From: Deltaproteobacteria bacterium
GTDB lineage: Bacteria; Myxococcota_A; UBA9160; JAJDAL01
DNA: 64,000 nucleotides
Reading direction: 5' to 3'
Assembly (NCBI GenBank): GCA_029261875.1
Contig: JAJDAL010000006.1
Span: 120,765-184,764 of the forward strand
In this document: positions 52,699 through 64,000 of the stretch, one piece after another
Numbering within the stretch: the stretch's first letter is position 1
How the letters are laid out: every line of letters starts with the position of its first letter
The notes under the pieces: generated by a model
Databases searched by the model: none
The model's input: only the letters and a program-made list of their open reading frames with translations
Told to the model about the DNA's origin: nothing
Program-made: the position numbers and the translations under genes

Positions 52699-53175
52699 TT
52701 GCTTCAGCTCAACAAGTTCAGCGACTACGGCGTGGTGCTCATGGCCTATCTCGCCCGCGAAGGCGAGCGCGCGCCCCACAACGCGCGGGAGATGTCCGAG
52801 ACCCTGCAGCTCCCGCTCCCCACCGTGAGCAAGATCCTGAAGCACCTGGCCCGCGCGGGCCTGCTCGAATCCCAGCGCGGCTGGAAGGGCGGCTACGAGC
52901 TGGCGCGAAAACCGGCGAAGATTTCCGTCGTCGACATCGTCAGTGCCCTCGAAGGCCCCCTCGGTTTGACGGAATGCACGTCGTCGCCGGGCAACTGCTC
53001 GCGCGAATCCCAATGCGCGGTGCGAACCCCCTGGCAGCGCATCAACAGTGCCATTCAAGACGCGTTGAGTCGCGTGACGCTCGCGGAGCTGATCGACCCA
53101 ACGCCTGCCCTACCTCACGTCGACGCCGCAGCATTGGCGCCGCCAGAACCCGCGCGGGAGATCGACCATGGCTGA
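52699..53175 (+). CDS. Rrf2 family transcriptional regulator (IscR/SufR-like)
   Basis: Start moved from ATG 52633 to TTG 52699, which lies 6 nt after AAGGAG and gives [19 protein letters not shown], the typical Rrf2 N-terminus. Cys cluster [14 protein letters not shown]. 8-nt overlap with sufB. Confidence 0.8.
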
Positions 53176-54610
53176 AGCACAGGACCTCCAAAAGCTTGCG
53201 GAGCGCGAATACGAGTTCGGCTTCGTCACCGACATCGAGACCGACTCGGCGCCTCCGGGGCTGTCGGAAGACACCATCCGGATGATCTCGAACAAGAAGG
53301 ACGAACCCGAGTGGCTGCTCGATTGGCGGCTGCGCGCCTACAAGCGCTGGCTCACGCTGGAGGATCCCGCTTGGGCCAAGGTCAAGCACCCGCCGATCAA
53401 CTACCAGGACATCATCTATTACTCGGCCCCCAAGCCGAAGAAGCAACTCGAGAGCCTGGATGAAGTGGATCCGGAAATTCTTCGCGCCTACGAGAAACTC
53501 GGCATTCCGTTGCTCGAGCAGAAGCGACTGGCCGGGGTCGCGGTGGATGCGGTGTTCGACAGCGTTTCCGTCGCTACGACGTTCAAAGCGGAGCTGGAGA
53601 AGCAGGGCATCCTCTTCTGCTCTTTCTCGGAAGCGGTGAAGAACCACCCGGACCTGATCCAGAAATACCTGGGCTCGGTGGTCCCCTACGCGGACAACTT
53701 TTACGCAGCCCTCAACTCGGCGGTCTTCACGGACGGCTCCTTCGCCTACATCCCCGAAGGCGTCCGCTGCCCCATGGAGCTCTCCACCTATTTCCGCATC
53801 AATGCGGCCAACACGGGACAATTCGAACGCACGCTGCTGGTAGCGGATAAGGGTGCGTACGTGAGCTACCTGGAAGGTTGCACCGCGCCCATGCGAGACG
53901 AAAACCAGCTGCACGCGGCGGTGGTGGAACTCGTGGCCCTGGAAGATGCCGAGATCAAGTATTCGACCATCCAGAACTGGTACCCCGGCGACAAGAACGG
54001 GAAGGGCGGCATCTACAATTTCGTCACCAAGCGCGGAAAATGCGCGGGGGCGCGTTCCAAGATCTCCTGGACCCAGGTCGAAACCGGCTCCGCGATCACC
54101 TGGAAGTATCCGAGCTGCATCCTGCAAGGGGACGATTCGGTGGGCGAGTTCTATTCCGTGGCTCTCACCGCAAATCATCAGCAAGCCGACACGGGCACCA
54201 AGATGATTCACATCGGTAAGAACACGAGCAGCACCATCATCTCCAAGGGAATCTCCGCCGGGCATGGCGACAACACCTACCGCGGACTGGTGCGAATGCA
54301 GAAGGGCGCCGACGGCGCGCGCAATTACTCCCAATGCGATTCGCTGCTGCTGGGCGATCAGTGCGGCGCACACACGTTCCCCTACCTCGAAGTACAGAAC
54401 TCGACCGCCACGGTGGAGCACGAGGCAACCACATCGAAGATCGGCGAAGACCAGCTCTTCTATTGCCAACAACGCGGCATTTCCGAAGAAGACGCCATCT
54501 CGTTGATCGTCAACGGCTTCTGCAAACAGGTCTTCCGGGAACTCCCGATGGAGTTTGCCGTCGAAGCCAACAACCTTCTCTCCCTGAGCCTCGAAGGCAG
54601 CGTGGGCTAG
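53168..54610 (+). CDS. sufB: Fe-S cluster assembly scaffold SufB
   Basis: 480 aa; unmistakable SufB sequence throughout (e.g. [37 protein letters not shown]). Confidence 0.95.
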
Positions 54611-54621
54611 GACGAAACAAC

Positions 54622-55386
54622 ATGACGACCCCGATTCTCGAAATTCAAGATCTCCACGCCCGCGCGGGCGAGCGCGACGTCCTGCAGGGCATCGAGCTCA
54701 CGGTGGCGCCGGGCGAAGTGCACGCCATCATGGGTCCGAACGGCTCCGGCAAGAGCACTCTCGCCAACGTCCTCGCCGGTCGACCCTCGGTGGACGTCAC
54801 CCACGGGAAGGTCCTCTATCGCGGTGCGGACCTGCTGGGGATGGCGCCGGAGCAACGCGCCCGGGAAGGCGTGTTCCTGGCATTTCAATATCCGGTCGAG
54901 ATCCCGGGGATCACGAACATGTACTTCGCGAAGGCCGCGCTCAACGCCGTGCGCGCGCATCGCGGCGAGAAGGAACTCGACGCGTTCGATTTCCTCAGCC
55001 TGGCACGCGAGAAGATGAAGCTCGTCGAAATGGATGAAGCCTTGATGAATCGCGCCATCAACGAAGGCTTCTCGGGCGGGGAAAAGAAGCGCAACGAGAT
55101 CCTGCAGATGGCGATTCTCGAACCCACTCTGGCCGTACTCGACGAAACCGATTCCGGCCTCGACATCGATGCCCTGCGCATCGTCGCCAACGGCGTCAAT
55201 TCGTTGCGCTCAGCGGATCGCTCGATGGTCCTCATCACCCATTACCAGCGCTTGCTCGATTACATCGTTCCCGATGTCGTCCACGTATTGTCCAGTGGGC
55301 GCATCGTTCGCTCCGGTGGAAAAGAACTCGCCCTCGAACTGGAAGAAAAGGGCTACGGATGGCTCGAGGAGGCGGCCGCGGGATGA
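54622..55386 (+). CDS. sufC: Fe-S cluster assembly ATPase SufC
   Basis: ORF 54334..55386 trimmed to ATG 54622. Walker A GPNGSGKST, ABC signature FSGGEKKR, Walker B LAVLDETDSGLD. Confidence 0.95.
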   Translation: MTTPILEIQDLHARAGERDVLQGIELTVAPGEVHAIMGPNGSGKSTLANVLAGRPSVDVTHGKVLYRGADLLGMAPEQRAREGVFLAFQYPVEIPGITNMYFAKAALNAVRAHRGEKELDAFDFLSLAREKMKLVEMDEALMNRAINEGFSGGEKKRNEILQMAILEPTLAVLDETDSGLDIDALRIVANGVNSLRSADRSMVLITHYQRLLDYIVPDVVHVLSSGRIVRSGGKELALELEEKGYGWLEEAAAG

Positions 55387-56690
55387 GCGACGACACGCTT
55401 CGAACCTACCGCGACGCTTTTGGGAAGCATTCCCCGAGTGAAGAACCCGGCTGGTTGCGCGCCCTGCGCGAAGTCGCCCTCGAGCGCTTCGCGGCGCGCG
55501 GATTCCCGACGCGGCAAGACGAAGCTTGGAAGTACACGAACGTCTCCGCCCTGGCGGAGCGCGCGTTCCCCTTGGCCCCAGGCGGTGGAGACGTCGACTG
55601 GAAAGGTACGGATGCGCCGGACTTGGGCGCCGCGCGCGCGGTTTTTGTCGATGGAACTTTCGCACCCGATCTCTCGACCCTGGACGGTCTTCCCGCAGGC
55701 ATTGCAATTCGCAGCATTGCAACCCTCCGCAACGTTCAACCCGAATTCCTCGAACCCCATCTCGGCAAAGTCGCCGCCATCGAGGATCACCCGTTTGCGG
55801 CGCTCAACAGCGCTTTCTTGAACGATGGAGCGGTCGTTCACTGCGCGCCCGACGCCTCCTGTGAAGTGCCCCTCCACCTGGTTTTCGTCTCCGCCGCAGG
55901 GCAATGTGTGTCCCATCCCCGCGTTCTCGTCGTCGCCGAAAGCGGCAGCGCCGTGACCGTGGTCGAGAGCTACGTCAGCGGAAATGGGATCGAACATCTC
56001 GTCAATCCCGTGCGCGAAATCCGGGTGGGCGAGGGTGCGCGCGTCGACCATGTCACTTTCCAAGCGCAAAGCCGCAAGAGTTTTCACATCTCCAACCTGG
56101 CCGTCCATCAAGCGCGGGACAGCCGCTTTGCCGCCCACTCCCTGTCCTTTGGCGCGGGTCTCACCCGCAACGACGCATGGGTATCGATGCAGGGCCCCGG
56201 CGCGGAAGCCACCCTCAACGGGCTCTATGTCGCCTGGAATCGCCAACACGTCGACAACTACACCCACATCGACCACGCGGAACCGAACTGCACCAGCCGG
56301 GAACTCTACAAGGGCATCCTGTCCGGAAGTGCGCGCGGTGTGTTTCACGGCCGGGTCGTCGTGAAGCCCGATGCTCAAAAGAGCAACGCGCAGCAGAACA
56401 ACAAGAACCTCCTGCTCTCGCGCGCGGCGGAGATCAACACCAAGCCCCAGCTCGAGATCTACGCCGACGACGTCAAATGCACCCACGGTTCGACCGTGGG
56501 ACAGCTCGACCCGAAGCAGGTCTTCTATCTCCGCTCGCGCGGCATCGATGAGAACCAAGCGCGCGCCATGCTCATGCGCGCCTTCGCGGGCGAGATCACC
56601 GACCGCCTTCCCGCCTCGGTCCGCGAATCCTTCGGGCAATTCACCGAGCGAAGACTCAGCGATCCCCGCCTGGAAGAGGGCACGGCGTGA
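55383..56690 (+). CDS. sufD: Fe-S cluster assembly protein SufD
   Basis: ATG 55383 overlaps the sufC stop (ATGA). 435 aa. SufD C-terminal block PQLEIYADDVKCTHGSTVGQLD. Confidence 0.9.
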   Translation: MSDDTLRTYRDAFGKHSPSEEPGWLRALREVALERFAARGFPTRQDEAWKYTNVSALAERAFPLAPGGGDVDWKGTDAPDLGAARAVFVDGTFAPDLSTLDGLPAGIAIRSIATLRNVQPEFLEPHLGKVAAIEDHPFAALNSAFLNDGAVVHCAPDASCEVPLHLVFVSAAGQCVSHPRVLVVAESGSAVTVVESYVSGNGIEHLVNPVREIRVGEGARVDHVTFQAQSRKSFHISNLAVHQARDSRFAAHSLSFGAGLTRNDAWVSMQGPGAEATLNGLYVAWNRQHVDNYTHIDHAEPNCTSRELYKGILSGSARGVFHGRVVVKPDAQKSNAQQNNKNLLLSRAAEINTKPQLEIYADDVKCTHGSTVGQLDPKQVFYLRSRGIDENQARAMLMRAFAGEITDRLPASVRESFGQFTERRLSDPRLEEGTA

Positions 56691-57928
56691 GTGTGGCGAC
56701 CCAAACTGCGGGCTTCGACCCGTACCGCGTTCGCAAGGACTTCCCGATCCTCGATCAGGAGATCGGGGGAAAGCCGCTCGCCTACCTCGACAACGCCGCC
56801 ACGGCTCAGAAACCGCGATCGGTGCTCGACGCACTCGAGCGCTACTACACCCGCGACAACGCGAACATCCATCGCGGCGTCCATACCCTGAGCGCCCGAG
56901 CCACCCAGGCCTACGAAGATGCGCGCAATACCGTCGCCCGCTTCTTGGGCGCCCGCGAAGCCCGGGAAATCGTACTGCTGCGCGGCACCACCGAAGCCAT
57001 CAATCTCGTGGCGCAAAGCTTCGGGCGAAAGCAGGTCGAGGCCGACGACGAAGTGCTCATCACCTGGATGGAGCATCACTCGAATATCGTTCCCTGGCAG
57101 CTCTTGTGCGAAGAGAAGGGTGCAAAACTGCGGGTTGCGCCGGTCAACGATCGCGGCGAACTCGAGCTGGAAGCCTTCGAACGCCTGCTCGGCCCCAAGA
57201 CGCGTATCGTCGCCGTCACCCACGTATCCAACGCCCTGGGAACCATCAACCCGGTGGAGGAGATCGTGCGGCTTTCGCACCAACGGGGAATTCCGGTGCT
57301 GCTCGACGGCGCCCAGGCGGTCCCCCACATCCCGGTGAACGTCGATGAAATCGGTTGTGACTTCTACGCGTTTTCGAGCCACAAGCTGTTCGGTCCGACG
57401 GGGACCGGCGCCCTCTACGCGCGAGCCGAGCTGTTGGAGATGATGCCGCCGTGGCAGGGCGGGGGCGAGATGATCGCGAGCGTGAGTTTCGATCAGACCA
57501 CCTACAACGAAGTGCCCCACAAGTTCGAAGCCGGAACGCCCAACATTGCGGGTCCCATCGGTATGGCGGCCGCCATCGAATACGTTCAGGAGATCGGCTA
57601 CCCCGCGATCTGCGCCCACGAGGACGAGTTGCTCCGCTACGGGACCGAACTCCTGGCCGCGATCCCCGAAGTCCGCCTGATCGGAACCGCCCGTGAAAAG
57701 GTGGGCGTGCTCTCATTCGTAGTCGGGGGCATCCATCCCCACGACATCGGCACCATCCTCGATCACGAGGGCGTGGCCATTCGAACGGGACACCATTGTG
57801 CGCAACCGTTGATGGACCGATTCGGTGTACCCGCCACCGCACGCGCCTCTTTGGCGTTCTACAACACCCGCGAAGAAATCGACGCATTGGCGAGTGGACT
57901 GCGTCGGGTAATCGAGATGTTCCGCTGA
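56687..57928 (+). CDS. sufS: Cysteine desulfurase SufS
   Basis: GTG 56687 overlaps the sufD stop (GTGA). PLP-Lys SSHKLFGPTGTGALY and catalytic Cys RTGHHCAQP. Confidence 0.95.
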   Translation: MSVATQTAGFDPYRVRKDFPILDQEIGGKPLAYLDNAATAQKPRSVLDALERYYTRDNANIHRGVHTLSARATQAYEDARNTVARFLGAREAREIVLLRGTTEAINLVAQSFGRKQVEADDEVLITWMEHHSNIVPWQLLCEEKGAKLRVAPVNDRGELELEAFERLLGPKTRIVAVTHVSNALGTINPVEEIVRLSHQRGIPVLLDGAQAVPHIPVNVDEIGCDFYAFSSHKLFGPTGTGALYARAELLEMMPPWQGGGEMIASVSFDQTTYNEVPHKFEAGTPNIAGPIGMAAAIEYVQEIGYPAICAHEDELLRYGTELLAAIPEVRLIGTAREKVGVLSFVVGGIHPHDIGTILDHEGVAIRTGHHCAQPLMDRFGVPATARASLAFYNTREEIDALASGLRRVIEMFR

Positions 57929-58383
57929 TGTCGGATCTACGTGAGCTCTACCAGTCGGTGATTCTCGATCACAGTCGAACGCCGCGAAACTTCGGCAAGC
58001 CGGACTCTTGCACCCACAGCGCCGAAGGTTTCAATCCGCTTTGCGGCGACCGCCTGACCGTCTACCTCGAAGTCGAGGATGACCAGATCAAGAAAGTCTC
58101 CTTCGAAGGTTCGGGTTGCGCGATCTCCCAGGCTTCGGCTTCGATGATGACGGAATGCGTCGAAGGCAAACCCCTCTCGGACGTATCGAAAACCTACGAC
58201 CGCTTTCACGATCTAGTCACTGGAGACCCCACGAGGGTTGCGAATCCCGATCCAGAGCTCGGGAAACTCGCGGCCTTTGCCGGGGTTCGAGAATTTCCCA
58301 TGCGCGTCAAATGCGCCACTCTCGCCTGGCATGCGATCCGCCAGGCTCTGGACGAGCGTGGCCAATCGGTGAGTACGGAATGA
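57928..58383 (+). CDS. sufU: Sulfur acceptor / scaffold SufU
   Basis: ATG 57928 overlaps the sufS stop (TGATG). 151 aa. Motifs NPLCGD, GSGCAISQASASMM and RVKCATLAW. Confidence 0.9.
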   Translation: MSDLRELYQSVILDHSRTPRNFGKPDSCTHSAEGFNPLCGDRLTVYLEVEDDQIKKVSFEGSGCAISQASASMMTECVEGKPLSDVSKTYDRFHDLVTGDPTRVANPDPELGKLAAFAGVREFPMRVKCATLAWHAIRQALDERGQSVSTE

Positions 58384-58757
58384 GCGAAGAACAGATTCCC
58401 CAGGAACCGACCCCGCAACCGGAAGCCCCCCAGGCCCAGTCCCTGACGCCGGAACTCCAGGCCATTCGGGACAAGACCATCGAGGTCCTGAAAACGGTCT
58501 ACGATCCCGAGATTCCGGTCGACATCTACGAGCTCGGCTTGATCTACGGCATCGAGGTCGAAGAAGATGCGAGCGTCAAGATCAAGATGACGTTGACCTC
58601 GCCCATGTGCCCCGTGGCCGAATCCCTCCCGCCCGAAGTCGAAGCGAAGGTGGGCGAGATCGCCGAGGTGAGCGCGGCCCAGGTCGACATCACCTGGGAG
58701 CCCCCCTGGGACCCGGGCATGATGTCCGACGCGGCACGTCTGACCCTCGGAATGTAA
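58380..58757 (+). CDS. sufT: DUF59/MIP18-family Fe-S assembly protein SufT
   Basis: ATG 58380 overlaps the sufU stop (ATGA). 125 aa. Motif VYDPEIPVDIYELGLIY...MTLTSPMCP. Confidence 0.85.
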   Translation: MSEEQIPQEPTPQPEAPQAQSLTPELQAIRDKTIEVLKTVYDPEIPVDIYELGLIYGIEVEEDASVKIKMTLTSPMCPVAESLPPEVEAKVGEIAEVSAAQVDITWEPPWDPGMMSDAARLTLGM

Positions 58758-59575: not shown

Positions 59576-60489
59576 CGCTCATTACCGGCGCCAACGGCCA
59601 CCTGGGTCGCCGGCTGATTTCGAAACTCGTCGCCGAAGAGGTTCCAGTTCGCGCCCTGGTGCGTTCGGAACGCGCCGCTCGCACACTCGTCGAACATCCC
59701 TGCGCCGGCCACTTCGAAGTGTGCGTCGTGGACTACACGGATGAAGACGGCCTCGCGCGCGCCGCCCTGGGCTGCGATCACGTGATCCACCTGGTCGGCA
59801 TCCTCAAGCAGACCCCCCAGGCCCGCTACGTCGACGCCCACGAAAATGCGACCCGGGCCCTGACCCGGGCGTGCGAGCGAGCCGGCGTTGCGCGCATCGT
59901 CTATCTCAGCATCTTGGGCTCGACTCCGAGTGCCGCCAACGCTTGCCTGGCATCGAAGGGGCGCGCCGAGCAGATGCTCGCGGACGGCCCGGTCCCGTCG
60001 ACGGTCCTGCGGCTCCCCATGGTTCTGGGTCCCGGCGATTTCGCCTCCAAGGCATTGCGGGGCAAGGCGCAAGCACCGCTGTGCTTCCTCGTCCGCGGCG
60101 GCGCCACCCTCGAGCAACCCATCGACGCCGACGACGTACTCTCCGCCGTCACCCAGGCGGTCGACCCGTCGCGCAACTCCCCGACCCATCTCGACTTGGA
60201 TCTCGCGGGCCCCGAATCGCTCCCGCACGTCGACCTCGTGCGCCGCGCCGCGAAGCTCTACGACCGCATGCCCCGCGTGGTCCCCATCCCCCTCGCTTTT
60301 GCCCGCCTGATGGCCAGCGCCATGGAACGTTTTTCCAAGAACCCACCCATCACGCGTGCGATGCTCGAGGTTCTGGAGCACGACGACCGGGTCGACCCGG
60401 CACCGGCGTGCAAACAACTGGGTCTCGAACTGACACCGCTGGACGAAACCTTGCGGCGCTGCGTTGGACCCGACGCGGAGGAAGCGTGA
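59572..60489 (+). CDS. NAD(P)-binding NmrA/SDR-like (atypical short-chain dehydrogenase/epimerase) protein
   Basis: ATG overlaps the upstream stop (ATGA). Rossmann motif MTLITGANGHLG. 305 aa. Confidence 0.8.
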   Translation: MTLITGANGHLGRRLISKLVAEEVPVRALVRSERAARTLVEHPCAGHFEVCVVDYTDEDGLARAALGCDHVIHLVGILKQTPQARYVDAHENATRALTRACERAGVARIVYLSILGSTPSAANACLASKGRAEQMLADGPVPSTVLRLPMVLGPGDFASKALRGKAQAPLCFLVRGGATLEQPIDADDVLSAVTQAVDPSRNSPTHLDLDLAGPESLPHVDLVRRAAKLYDRMPRVVPIPLAFARLMASAMERFSKNPPITRAMLEVLEHDDRVDPAPACKQLGLELTPLDETLRRCVGPDAEEA

Positions 60490-61439
60490 CCGAGACCCCC
60501 GAGAAACCCGCCCCGGCCCTCTGGAAACGCCTGGCCCCCTGGGTCATCACCGCCATCTGCTTTGCCTACCTCTATTTGCAGATCGATCGTCAAGCCGGGT
60601 TCCAGGGCAAGAGCGCGTTCGAACTCCTGGGAGACGTCTTCGCCCAGGTGAGCTGGTTCAAATGGCTCGCCCTCATGATCCCTTACTCGATCTTCTTCTT
60701 CCTCGTCGACTCGCTGGTGGTCTGGCGAATCATCAACTGGTTCAACACACGCATCCCCTACACCGACATCCTTCCCATCCGCGCCAGCGCGTACATCATT
60801 TCGATCTTGAACGAACAAGTGGGCAAGGGCGCCATGGCGATGTACCTGAACCGGCGCGACGGCGTCCCGGGCCTGCAGGTTCTCTCGAGCATGATGTTCA
60901 TCATGTTCTGCGAGTTCTACTATCTGCTCGGCTGGGCGACCGTGGGCACCCGCATCGGCCGCGACGCGCTCCCGGAGATCTTTCATTCGATCCCGTTGAT
61001 CGCCGCCGTGGCATTTCTCTTCTTGGTACTTTGGATTCTGTATTTTCGCGGCGTAATTGCTCCCGGAAACCAATTCCGAAACCGCGACGTCATGCACGCC
61101 TTCCGCCAAGCGCGTTGGTGGCAATACGGAACCATCATCCTGCTGCGCTCCCCAGCCCTCCTGGCCGCCGTCGTCGTCTACACCCTCGCCCTGCGCCTCT
61201 TCGGCGTCGAAGCCACCTTCGCCAACATGCTGGGCTACCTACCGGTCATCTTCTTCGGCGCCTCGATCCCCGGCCCCTTCCGCGCCGTCGCCATCACCCT
61301 ATGGTCCGAACTCTTCCCGGAAAACCGCGCCCAGATGGCGATCTTCGGCCTCGTCCAACACAACTTCTTCATCCTCTTCAACGCCGCCATCGGCCTCGCC
61401 TTCGTCCGCCGAGCCAACCGCGAACTCTTCGAAAGCTAA
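60486..61439 (+). CDS. Flippase-like / lysyl-PG-synthase-TM-region-like (UPF0104) polytopic membrane protein
   Basis: GTG 60486 overlaps the upstream stop (GTGA). 317 aa with about 8 hydrophobic helices. The family call rests on overall topology and residue pattern only. Confidence 0.7.
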   Translation: MTETPEKPAPALWKRLAPWVITAICFAYLYLQIDRQAGFQGKSAFELLGDVFAQVSWFKWLALMIPYSIFFFLVDSLVVWRIINWFNTRIPYTDILPIRASAYIISILNEQVGKGAMAMYLNRRDGVPGLQVLSSMMFIMFCEFYYLLGWATVGTRIGRDALPEIFHSIPLIAAVAFLFLVLWILYFRGVIAPGNQFRNRDVMHAFRQARWWQYGTIILLRSPALLAAVVVYTLALRLFGVEATFANMLGYLPVIFFGASIPGPFRAVAITLWSELFPENRAQMAIFGLVQHNFFILFNAAIGLAFVRRANRELFES

Positions 61440-61640: not shown

Positions 61641-61679
61641 CAAAAAAGAAAGCGCCCCGTCGGAAACCCGACGAGGCGC
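61641..61679 (-). terminator. Rho-independent terminator of 61703..62734
   Basis: Minus strand: GCGCCTCGTCGG-gttt-CCGACGGGGCGC (11 of 12 pairs), followed by TTTCTTTTTTG. Confidence 0.7.
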
Positions 61680-61702: not shown

Positions 61703-62734
61703 CTACAGCGTCGATACGGAATCCACCGTAGTCGGCATGCAGAGCAGATCTTCGCCCTTGGTATCAACCTGCGACGGAATCGCGAAGTTGTTCGTAACCG
61801 TGGTGAAGACGTTGTTGCGCTTCGTGTGCTTGTTCTGCTTCAGCTTGTCGCCCACCGAAAGGCCCGCGATGGCGCCCGTCGTGGCGTCGGTGACCTTGGC
61901 CGTCGGCTTCGCCTGGTAGCACATCAAGCTGTCGGTCGTGCTGGGCGTCGAACCCGTCACGCTGGCAACCGTGATCCGCGGCGGATCCACGTTGCTCTTG
62001 GTGGCCGGATTGCACAGGAACTTGGGCTTCTTGACGTCGTGGAGACAGTTGCCCGCAACCGAGGTCGCCGGGAAGGACGGATTGCCGTCCTTGTCCGTCG
62101 CGCAATCGATGGCCTGGAACTGATCCACGAAGAAAGCCTGAAGACCCTTCAGCAGCTTGCCCTTCGAGGGGTCCTGCTGCGTTCCGAACGGTCCAACCTT
62201 GCTCTCTTTGACCTGGTAGCAGATGTAGTGCGTCTTATCGCCCGGATCCGCCGGCGGTGCGCCAACGTCCTTGCCCGTGGGAACCCACAGGAATGCGACT
62301 TTGTTGCTGTCGAGGGTCAACGTTCCCAGTTGATTGGTGACCTCGAAGCGACGCTTGATGTGCTTCGCCGGCTTCGGGAACTTGCCCTTGGAATCGACGG
62401 GCCCAATGCCCTCTTTTCCACTCTTCACCTGATAAACCATGTAGTGGGTATCGGGATCATCGGGAGCGCCCTCAGCGTTCTTCTCGCCGGGAACCGCCAA
62501 GTTCTTTTCCTTCTGAACGTTGTAGTTCTCGGGATCATCCGCGCCCGAGATCACCGCATCGTCCAACGTGATGTTGAAATCTTTCGGGAACTTCTCACCA
62601 GTAATCTTGGAAGCCTTCGCCTTGTAGACGAAGTAGTGGTCGGTCACGTCCACCGACGGGCCCGCCAACGCCGGTCCCGCGGCAAGTCCGACAACAACAG
62701 CAAGTGCTGTCGCGAGGGTCAGCAACGATCGCAT
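61703..62734 (-). CDS. Secreted four-module repeat protein (H-Y-x-x-Y-x-x-K ... L-C-x-P modules), copy A
   Basis: 343 aa. AGGAG RBS and signal peptide MRSLLTLATALAVVVGLAAGPALA. Four internal modules start at DHYFVYKAK, THYMVYQVK, THYICYQVK and SLMCYQAK. Confidence 0.8.
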   Translation of the reverse strand: MRSLLTLATALAVVVGLAAGPALAGPSVDVTDHYFVYKAKASKITGEKFPKDFNITLDDAVISGADDPENYNVQKEKNLAVPGEKNAEGAPDDPDTHYMVYQVKSGKEGIGPVDSKGKFPKPAKHIKRRFEVTNQLGTLTLDSNKVAFLWVPTGKDVGAPPADPGDKTHYICYQVKESKVGPFGTQQDPSKGKLLKGLQAFFVDQFQAIDCATDKDGNPSFPATSVAGNCLHDVKKPKFLCNPATKSNVDPPRITVASVTGSTPSTTDSLMCYQAKPTAKVTDATTGAIAGLSVGDKLKQNKHTKRNNVFTTVTNNFAIPSQVDTKGEDLLCMPTTVDSVSTL

Positions 62735-63025
62735 AGCTCAACTCCTGTCTTTACCCGTTGAATCGGGTGGGGTTTCGCTCGTAGTTCTTCTGCATCCAGC
62801 CGGCTGTGCCGAGCACCCTGCCGCACAATTCCAGCGGGAAACACGACCGCCTGCCCCGCCTGCGCCTCGTGTGCAAAACACCAAGACGAACAGGCAAACA
62901 AGCGGCAACGCGTGGCATGTTACGCCAATGCAATTCCGCAATGGGGTGTTTAGACATCACCAAATGTCATGAATTATCGGAGTGTGAATTTTGCGAATGC
63001 GGAGCCCGCCACCTGCGCGGCGCCC

Positions 63026-63063
63026 ACAAAAGAAAACGCCCCGTCGGATTCCCGACGGGGCGT
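63026..63063 (-). terminator. Rho-independent terminator of 63086..>64000
   Basis: Minus strand: ACGCCCCGTCGG-gaat-CCGACGGGGCGT (12 of 12 pairs), followed by TTTCTTTTGT. Confidence 0.75.
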
Positions 63064-63085
63064 TCCTGCGAAAAGCCCGGAGGCT

Positions 63086-64000
63086 TTAGAGCGCGGACAC
63101 GGAATCGACCGTAGTCGGAATGCAGAGCAGATCTTCGCCCTTGGTATCAACCTGCGACGGAATCGCGAAGTTGTTCGTAACCGTGGTGAAGACGTTGTTG
63201 CGCTTCGTGTGCTTGTTCTGCTTCAGCTTGTCGCCCACCGAAAGGCCCGCAATGGCGCCCGTCGTGGCGTCGGTGACCTTGGCCGTCGGCTTCGCCTGGT
63301 AGCACATCAAGCTGTCGGTCGTGCTGGGCGTCGAACCCGTCACGCTGGCAACCGTGACCCGCGGCGGATCGACGTTGGCCTTGCTGGCCGGGTTGCACAG
63401 GAACTTCACCTTCTTGAGGTCGTGGAGACAGTTCCCCGCAACCGAGGTCGCCGGGAAGGACGGATCGCCATTCTTGTCCGTCGCACAGTCGATGGCCTGG
63501 AACTGATCCACGAAGAAAGCCTGAAGACCCTTCAACAGCTTGCCCTTGGAGGGGTCCTGCTGCGTTCCGAACGGCGGAATCTTGCTCTCCTTGACCTGGT
63601 AGCAAAGGTAGTGGGTGGCATCGCCCGGATCCGCCGGCGGTGCGCCAACGTCCTTGCCCGTGGGAACCCACAGGAATGCCACTTTGTTGCTGTCGACGTT
63701 CAAGGTCCCGAGTTGGTTGGTAGTCTCGAAGCGACGCTTGATGTGCTTCGCCGGCTTCGGGAACTTGCCCTTGGAATCCACGGGACCAACGCCCTCTTTC
63801 GCACTTTTCACCTGGTAGACCAGGTAGTGAAGGTCAGGGTCGTTCGGCGCGCCCTCGGCATTCTTCTCGCCGGGGACCGAGAGATTCTTTTCCTTTTGAA
63901 CGCTGAAGTTCTCGGGATCATCGGCACCCGAGATCACTGCATCGTCCAAAGTGATGTTGAAATCTTTCGGGAACTTCTCACCAGTAATCTTGGAAACCTT
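63086..64000 (-). CDS. Secreted four-module repeat protein, copy B (5' end outside window)
   Basis: Continues in frame to the window edge beyond track ORF 63086..63949; the track's M at 63949 is an internal TTG Leu. About 92% identical to copy A, with no indels. Confidence 0.8.
   Translation of the reverse strand, partial: KVSKITGEKFPKDFNITLDDAVISGADDPENFSVQKEKNLSVPGEKNAEGAPNDPDLHYLVYQVKSAKEGVGPVDSKGKFPKPAKHIKRRFETTNQLGTLNVDSNKVAFLWVPTGKDVGAPPADPGDATHYLCYQVKESKIPPFGTQQDPSKGKLLKGLQAFFVDQFQAIDCATDKNGDPSFPATSVAGNCLHDLKKVKFLCNPASKANVDPPRVTVASVTGSTPSTTDSLMCYQAKPTAKVTDATTGAIAGLSVGDKLKQNKHTKRNNVFTTVTNNFAIPSQVDTKGEDLLCIPTTVDSVSAL

Follow-up and report, generated by a model that had tools for sequence, protein, structure and literature searches.

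A predicted secreted protein of four DUF7450 modules, encoded by tandem genes, as the stand-alone form of a block usually C-terminal in large multidomain proteins

Two similar genes lie in tandem at the end of the 64,000-nt stretch of DNA analysed here (the window, from a contig of a Deltaproteobacteria bacterium), and they raise the question of what kind of protein they encode and what this protein might do. A sequence-only reading of the window had described the product of the complete gene (the target gene) as a secreted protein consisting of four degenerate modules, for which it could name no family. The open reading frame was found exactly where it had been placed, with the same coordinates, strand and length (Table 1). 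The strong ribosome-binding site ascribed to the target gene was recovered, and a hairpin followed by a T-run is present behind both genes, in agreement with the clean terminators that had been described. An upstream region of about 350 nt had been assigned to each gene; this is accurate for the target gene, and the corresponding region of the second gene lies beyond the window. Scans of the 351-nt spacer upstream of the target gene with the sigma-70 and sigma-54 consensus sequences yielded no match, and no Rfam family came near the threshold for a riboswitch or leader in this region.

Table 1. Features of the target gene, its product and the neighbouring paralog (coordinates of the window; amino-acid positions refer to the target protein or, for the paralog, to its own chain)
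Feature	Position	Strand	Basis and remarks
Gene for the secreted four-module protein (target gene)	61703..62734	-	ORF list; 343 aa; stop codon 61703-61705; Pfam DUF7450
Shine-Dalgarno sequence AGGAG	62742..62746	-	From sequence; 7 nt ahead of ATG
Intrinsic terminator of the target gene	61652..61679	-	Terminator scan; 12-bp stem with 10 G-C pairs, then T-run
Terminator of the upstream paralog	63033..63066	-	Terminator scan; strong hairpin and T-run
Intergenic region between the two paralogs	62735..63085	-	351 nt; the paralog's terminator lies within it
Tandem paralog, cut by the window end	63086..64000	-	aa 40-343 visible; same four modules
Signal peptide, aa 1-24 (MRSLLTLATALAVVVGLAAGPALA|G)	62663..62734	-	Read from sequence; Sec/SPase I type, without lipobox
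Module 1, A-type, aa 32-86	62477..62641	-	Module HMM matches; hhalign M1-M3 97.8%
Module 2, B-type, aa 94-156	62267..62455	-	Module HMM matches; hhalign M2-M4 93.4%
Module 3, A-type, aa 169-247	61994..62230	-	Module HMM; insert of ~25 aa; Cys172/Cys241 predicted clamp
Module 4, B-type, aa 268-336	61727..61933	-	Module HMM matches; Cys272/Cys332 predicted clamp

The full-length tandem paralog (P0001) also has 343 aa and is 92% identical to the target protein, from which it differs at 29 amino-acid positions; looking up either protein by its exact sequence gave no record. The window genes flanking this pair are on the opposite strand and converge toward it; they correspond to a SUF operon, an alpha/beta hydrolase, a NAD-binding protein and a membrane protein. 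The nearest named relatives of the SufB encoded in the window (80-83% identity) are nearly all from Myxococcota metagenome-assembled genomes (MAGs).

The target protein begins with a Sec-type signal peptide, which ends A-L-A|G as read from the sequence, suggesting cleavage at about A24|G25, and in the AlphaFold model residues 1-20 have pLDDT values below 60. A signal-peptide-like N-terminus was also found in 96 of the 115 complete family members. The earlier view of a secreted protein is supported by these features, and the target protein is likely to be exported.

The similarity between the modules is too low to be detected by simple comparisons. Self-BLASTP of the target protein gave the identity match alone, with no internal repeat, and Smith-Waterman alignments of single modules yielded z values of 1.3 to 3.4 for most pairs, the lowest being those of M2-M4 and M3-M4 (1.3 to 1.6) and the highest that of M2-M3 (7.2). 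Repeat detection therefore required profiles. When module profiles cut from a 9-sequence family alignment were compared with hhalign, five of the six module pairs were aligned over 56-67 columns with a probability of 92-98% and E values of 1e-7 to 1e-12, whereas column-shuffled controls (n=30) did not exceed a probability of 1.2% (E >= 0.04). Furthermore, a 62-state module HMM, seeded exclusively with 13 modules from the distant relatives P0125, P0129 and P0115, gave four matches on the target protein (aa 32-86, 95-156, 232-247 and 270-336), with independent E-values of 1e-4 to 3e-6, and iteration of this model led to the boundaries given in Table 1. The homology of the four modules proposed in the sequence-only reading is borne out by both approaches.

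The motifs on which that proposal was based were all located at the positions given for them, including the four starts (DHYFVYKAK, THYMVYQVK, THYICYQVK and SLMCYQAK), the K-F/L-x-K patches, the strands and the L-x-x-P or L-C-x-P ends. The consensus of the module HMM (.dHylCYqaK.aK...p...Kh.K.lqv.l.DQFgdp..vDtKKp..LCvPa.K) reproduced the elements that had been used to define a module, namely the H-Y-x-x-Y-x-x-K start, the basic patch, the strand of alternating hydrophobic residues running into D/N-Q-F, and the L-C-x-P end. Module 1 is characterised by HYFVYKAK ... KFPK ... NITLDDAV ... NLAVPGEK and module 2 by HYMVYQVK ... KFPKPAKHIKRR ... FEVTNQLG ... VAFLWVPTGK, and in both of them the two cysteine positions are replaced (V/V and V/W, respectively). 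The insert of module 3 (about 25 aa) holds Cys211 and Cys230. Module 4 contains SLMCYQAK ... KHTKR ... TTVTNNFA ... DLLCMPTT, and the chain ends seven residues further on. The four modules, of about 55 to 80 aa, do not form a series of equal repeats, and the original scheme needs correction on this point: they alternate in the order A-B-A-B, and the target protein is thus made up of two DUF7450 di-repeats. This order agrees with the hhalign ranking, in which M1-M3 was the best pair and M2-M4 was strong.

A family can in fact be named. The target protein matched Pfam PF24247 (DUF7450), described in Pfam as a "repeat of unknown function", in two stretches with 41.5 bits (E = 1.4e-10; best stretch aa 123-179), above the gathering score of 27, and the paralog, even as cut by the window, reached 28.5 bits against the same gathering score. 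The target protein shares its module motifs and its A/B alternation with the canonical members P0125 (DUF7450 match of 8e-87 in five stretches) and P0129, in which A-type modules (DHFKCY...DQF...LCNP.K) alternate with B-type modules (HLVCY...NQFG...LCVPS.K). The Pfam unit of 151 aa comprises two modules, an A-type followed by a B-type, so it is a di-module and the finer, true repeat unit is the module of about 65 aa. With respect to canonical PF24247, the window protein represents a divergent subfamily, in which the C-terminal cassette is fixed at four modules, modules 1 and 2 have lost their cysteines and module 3 has a 25-aa insert that would bear a disulfide. The current Pfam model under-detects this subfamily, and only 13 of 57 close relatives matched it at E <= 1e-3. 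No well-characterised family was found for the protein in Pfam, NCBIfam or PDB sequence searches: the NCBIfam scan gave no informative match, phmmer and profile hmmsearch against PDB sequences gave best E values of 0.27-1.5, and a literature search on DUF7450 and PF24247 retrieved no paper. The family is catalogued but uncharacterised, and the window protein adds a new, divergent member to it; the definition of the module of about 65 aa and the disulfide proposed below add to the Pfam description, and our findings overturn nothing in current understanding. We regard the identity and architecture of the target protein as almost certain.

The cysteines provide a further signature. In a 78-sequence alignment of relatives, C172, C241, C272 and C332 were the sole invariant columns. 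Over 616 distinct modules, the two cysteine columns were both occupied in 329 and both replaced in 279, with only 8 mixed cases. This coupling and the invariance of the four residues support the intramodule disulfide that had been suggested for modules 3 and 4, with its loss from modules 1 and 2. When module 1 alone was compared across proteins, the pair was present in 14, absent from 116 and mixed in none, indicating that the two cysteines are gained or lost together within one module position. The cysteine pair also gave the top MI-APC signal (0.58, with 0.32 for the next pair). The C172-C241 and C272-C332 bonds are putative as chemical bonds, but strongly supported by this covariation. C211 and C230, in the insert of module 3, are invariant among close relatives and are probably paired in a third disulfide.

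The AlphaFold2 model of the whole protein, obtained with the 78-sequence alignment, had a mean pLDDT of 92.4 and a pTM of 0.88. It is all-beta, each module consisting of a strand of about 9 residues, a strand of about 7 residues and a long strand or hairpin, and the last modelled strand reaches residue 342. The M1-M2 di-module modelled alone gave comparable values (pLDDT 92.4, pTM 0.82), with the long element as a hairpin. In the model of the whole protein, the four modules are predicted to pack as one rigid body. In Foldseek searches of the PDB nothing was significant: the whole protein reached a best E of 0.23 and the di-module one of 1.6, both with TM-scores of 0.2 or below, and BFVD likewise gave no significant match. 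It is therefore established that no solved structural analogue is detected for the block as modelled, and no function can be transferred to it on this basis.

The main functional clue is the C-terminal position of the block in its relatives. An exhaustive HMM search identified 2,070 cluster representatives at E <= 1e-3, 150 of them at E <= 1e-30. Of 110 near-full-length matches in a single stretch, 101 had no more than 10 residues between the end of the block and the C-terminus and 89 had more than 150 residues ahead of the block, and about 10% of members consisted of the block alone. The stop codon was located 6-12 aa past module 4 in 33 of the 34 complete genes from the fetched loci. A near-obligate C-terminal position with a tail of 6-12 residues is also what a secretion or sorting domain would display. 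Of 161 members, 130 had four modules and three had 8 or 12; the other 28 had fewer than four, and fragments may be among them. The domains fused to the block are very diverse extracellular domains, including CHRD, DUF4215, TSP_3, EGF, Disintegrin, NosD/beta-helix, CBM96, Peptidase_M10, Peptidase_S8, GH9, Kelch, FG-GAP, GSDH and the LDL-receptor propeller, and in P0003 and P0006 a Pro/Thr-rich linker lies ahead of the block. In eight members, the block is located near the N-terminus, before Lcl_C, Big, PD40 or DUF4215+Kazal domains, an arrangement more in keeping with a portable binding module than with a sorting signal confined to the terminus. The window protein thus represents, in stand-alone form, a block that usually makes up the C-terminal end of large multidomain secreted proteins. 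The earlier suggestion of a surface or extracellular binding protein would be compatible with this.

The family showed neither a conserved aromatic-rich surface signature nor one of consistent charge. The pI of the cassette ranges from 4.8 to 9.7 (median 7.8), a span that rules out charge-based binding as a general property. A genome scan with closer sequences identified one MAG named "Deltaproteobacteria" (OFTM125), with two cassette loci, and relatives were also found in 30 metagenome contigs, one of which (Ga0315338_1000248) carries two cassette genes. An all-vs-all comparison of the ORFs flanking 37 loci revealed no recurrent neighbour gene. A 205-aa gene overlapping the start of the cassette gene in two loci (L005 and L006; 39% identity) was considered as a conserved partner and rejected. 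The cassette proteins of these two loci share an M10-like N-terminal domain (53% identity), and the gene is absent from the window and from the other loci, so it tracks the protease rather than the cassette. Stand-alone tandem copies were found, among the 37 loci, in the window only.

We suggest the following explanation for these proteins. After Sec export and removal of the signal peptide behind A24, as read from the sequence, three disulfides would form in the oxidising periplasm. C172-C241 would clamp the first to the last strand of module 3, C272-C332 would do the same in module 4, and C211-C230 would close the insert of module 3. The A-B-A-B modules, predicted to pack as a single rigid body, would then serve in targeting or anchoring as a portable module without catalytic activity, as the architecture of the family suggests. 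The target of the block would be a partner protein or a common ligand, either extracellular or in the cell envelope, and, once bound, the block would hold the N-terminal domain of a multidomain protein on the cell surface or within the matrix. The tandem genes of the window would supply the block alone, which may occupy the same binding sites, or build on them, free of cargo. For this full account, of an exported, disulfide-clamped A-B-A-B body acting in targeting or anchoring, we see a chance slightly short of even. Taken by itself, the binding or anchoring role is tentative: a serious possibility, somewhat on the doubtful side.

The position of the block could also be explained if it were a secretion or sorting domain read by a dedicated outer-membrane translocation or attachment machinery, in the manner of the C-terminal domain (CTD) of type IX secretion substrates, with the stand-alone copies as cargo-free substrates or regulators of the pathway. 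The near-obligate placement of the block at the very C-terminus, followed by a short tail of fixed length, its sharing by many otherwise unrelated secreted proteins, and the presence of more than one cassette gene in MAG OFTM125, in contig Ga0315338_1000248 and in the window (two each) are all consistent with this explanation. However, the block, with about 310 aa, exceeds known folded sorting domains three- to fourfold in size, for which the type IX CTD is the yardstick, no Por_Secre_tail or NCBIfam sorting-signal model matched it, and the 37 loci share no adjacent machinery gene. The eight members with the block N-terminal to other domains and the tenth or so of members that are block alone also argue against it, and we consider a sorting domain unlikely. 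Alternatively, the block may be a self-assembly domain, the stand-alone protein, which would then be abundant, polymerising into a surface lattice or fibre in which the fusion proteins co-assemble and display their enzymes or adhesins. The tandem arrangement of the stand-alone genes, with good ribosome-binding sites and strong terminators, and the predicted rigidity of the block (pTM 0.88) would suit such a component, and the very low TM-scores, combined with high rmsd values, in comparisons with all globular folds would agree with an unusual shape, which might be elongated. The restriction of stand-alone tandem copies to the window, among the 37 loci, argues against it, and we consider self-assembly quite unlikely as an explanation of the block.

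Two other readings find little room in the data. The block resembles the beta-domain of an autotransporter in its size (about 300 aa), all-beta composition and C-terminal position, so an outer-membrane beta-barrel translocator might be envisaged. Nevertheless, its strands, polar and rich in lysine, are not of the lipid-facing kind, its conserved cysteines are predicted to form disulfides, no autotransporter or other barrel model of Pfam matched it, some members carry it at the N-terminus, and the di-module is predicted to fold confidently alone. The last residue is proline in 62 of 118 family members and phenylalanine, tryptophan or tyrosine in none, which is incompatible with the beta-signal of outer-membrane proteins; the barrel was rejected on this ground and is highly improbable. 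The four-module pattern might also reflect a chance resemblance within a low-complexity, Lys/Asp-rich secreted protein, as the weak single-sequence scores of M2-M4 and M3-M4 might suggest. This is refuted by the separation of the hhalign probabilities from those of the 30 shuffled controls and by the recovery of all four modules with an HMM from distant members; Pfam, moreover, independently models the family as a repeat, and we see virtually no prospect for a chance origin.

The secreted repertoires of Myxococcota are very large and comprise enzymes and eukaryote-like adhesion domains, and it is only partly understood how these are retained on the surface or within the matrix. To our knowledge, MYXO-CTERM is the one characterised route of such retention in this phylum. 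As a targeting or anchoring module, the block is a testable candidate for a second such device, and the window protein, consisting of signal peptide and block, is the minimal natural construct and a tractable structure target. A much bolder reading would see in the A-B-A-B cassette a new fold and an unrecognised large C-terminal domain for surface attachment or secretion in Myxococcota-like bacteria, with its own receptor or machinery and a cargo family of more than 2,000 protein clusters, the stand-alone paralogs being dedicated components rather than degenerate cargo; we give this a small chance. Should the block prove to be a mere stabilising stalk, Pfam DUF7450 would still be better defined, with a repeat unit of about 65 aa and alternating A and B types.

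Several known systems invite comparison. The block is similar to the type IX CTD (Por_Secre_tail) as a folded, beta-rich domain at the end of diverse secreted enzymes and adhesins. Nevertheless, the CTD has only about 80-100 aa, as against about 310 aa for the block, and occurs in Bacteroidota, whereas the lineage of the block is Myxococcota-like; the internal four-fold repeat, the predicted disulfides and the occasional N-terminal position also set the block apart, and Por_Secre_tail models (TIGR04183 and PF18962) were absent from the Pfam and NCBIfam scans at E <= 10. The MYXO-CTERM tag (PMC11980579) is short and tripartite, with a motif containing a Cys, then a transmembrane helix and finally a tail of basic residues. 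It comes from the same phylum as the window protein and is, like the block, a C-terminal element; it has an invariant Cys and recurs in many surface proteins. Unlike this tag, the window protein ends as a beta-strand (...LLCMPTTVDSVSTL), without a hydrophobic helix or basic tail; the modelled strand at the sequence end ...EDLLCMPTTVDSVSTL is not the tripartite arrangement, and NCBIfam gave no MYXO-CTERM match.

By analogy, the modules may also be likened to CCP/sushi domains, which are tandem beta-only modules of about 60 aa in extracellular multidomain proteins of eukaryotes, with a disulfide joining the first and last strands. The block would have one disulfide per module instead of two, and its A-B pairs are predicted to be rigidly packed; no CCP/sushi match was found in sequence (Pfam) or structure (Foldseek against the PDB). 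The SLH and CWB2 repeats, each present in three copies, the latter in the cell-wall proteins of Clostridioides difficile, may offer a parallel in the logic of use. The block has no similarity to these repeats in sequence or profile (the Pfam scan of the window protein gave no match to PF00395 or PF04122), is predicted to be all-beta with disulfides, and belongs to a Gram-negative host. In SLH and CWB2 proteins, a fixed number of tandem repeats is packed as a single body, which is joined in each lineage to many functional domains, mostly at one terminus and occasionally at the other, and cargo-less versions of such anchoring repeats exist. The block, as a predicted rigid body of four modules that is usually C-terminal, sometimes N-terminal and, in the window, encoded alone, may be used according to the same logic.

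Of 57 proteins closely related to the window protein, only 13 reached E <= 1e-3 against the DUF7450 model of Pfam (PF24247), and the precomputed Pfam annotation was blank for most of the homologues retrieved. Pfam annotation as it stands thus overlooks most of the subfamily characterized by the four-module C-terminal cassette.

At the DNA level, modules 1–3 of the window gene and its tandem paralog were about 88–92% identical, whereas module 4 (~240 nt) displayed 97–100% identity. Overall, the two paralogs had 39 codons with synonymous differences and 25 with non-synonymous ones. This difference in identity between module 4 and modules 1–3 suggests that gene conversion has recently affected the 3' part of the gene or, alternatively, that a constraint acts there on the nucleotide sequence itself.

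Coordinates of the features discussed in the text
Feature	Location	Strand	Remark
~205-aa gene	L005:7400-8023	+	overlaps start of cassette gene
~205-aa gene	L006:275-886	+	overlaps start of cassette gene
Second ORF of L001	L001:15855-17006	-	
~240-nt stretch encoding module 4, window gene	window 61723-61962		
~240-nt stretch encoding module 4, paralog	window about 63106-63345		
Complete SUF iron-sulfur assembly operon	window 53168-58757	+	
~320-aa membrane protein	window 60480-61439		

Two cassette loci were found in the MAG OFTM125 (L001 and L002) and two on the 175-kb contig Ga0315338_1000248 (L016 and L024), and cassette genes sharing a genome or contig differed in their N-terminal parts and were unlinked in position. 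A second ORF of L001 gave a weak match to a single module. The CHRD-plus-cassette loci L002, L004 and L007, from different samples, were mutually syntenic. The neighbours common to them include an upstream gene for a large DUF4215-like protein and, on the downstream side, luciferase-like and hydrolase genes, and this synteny indicates that the three loci correspond to one orthologous sub-lineage.

In two independent metagenome contigs (L005 and L006), a ~205-aa gene was found together with the M10-like metalloprotease N-terminal domain common to the family members P0056 and P0157. The two products were 39% identical (E = 1e-33) and neither had a Pfam match. The gene may encode an inhibitor, a chaperone or a partner dedicated to the M10-like protease.

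In the SUF operon of the window, an ABC-ATPase gene is flanked by two SufBD-core genes; these three are presumably sufB, sufC and sufD. The operon also contains genes for a class-V aminotransferase (sufS-like), NifU_N (sufU-like) and FeS_assembly_P (DUF59-type). The genes that come after the operon encode an alpha/beta hydrolase, an NAD(P)-binding protein and the ~320-aa membrane protein, the last of these having no Pfam match.

The family member P0008 (aa ~285–320) and several others carry a Cys-rich insert of about 30 aa (for example, CADGAPLNVGADCDDEDDCGGTPEVTDFC), which follows the first strand of module 1 and precedes its KFPK patch, and which sometimes occupies the corresponding place in module 2. 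This insert is similar to the Cys-rich repeat of Myxococcus (DUF4215), which is also a fusion partner in the cassette family.
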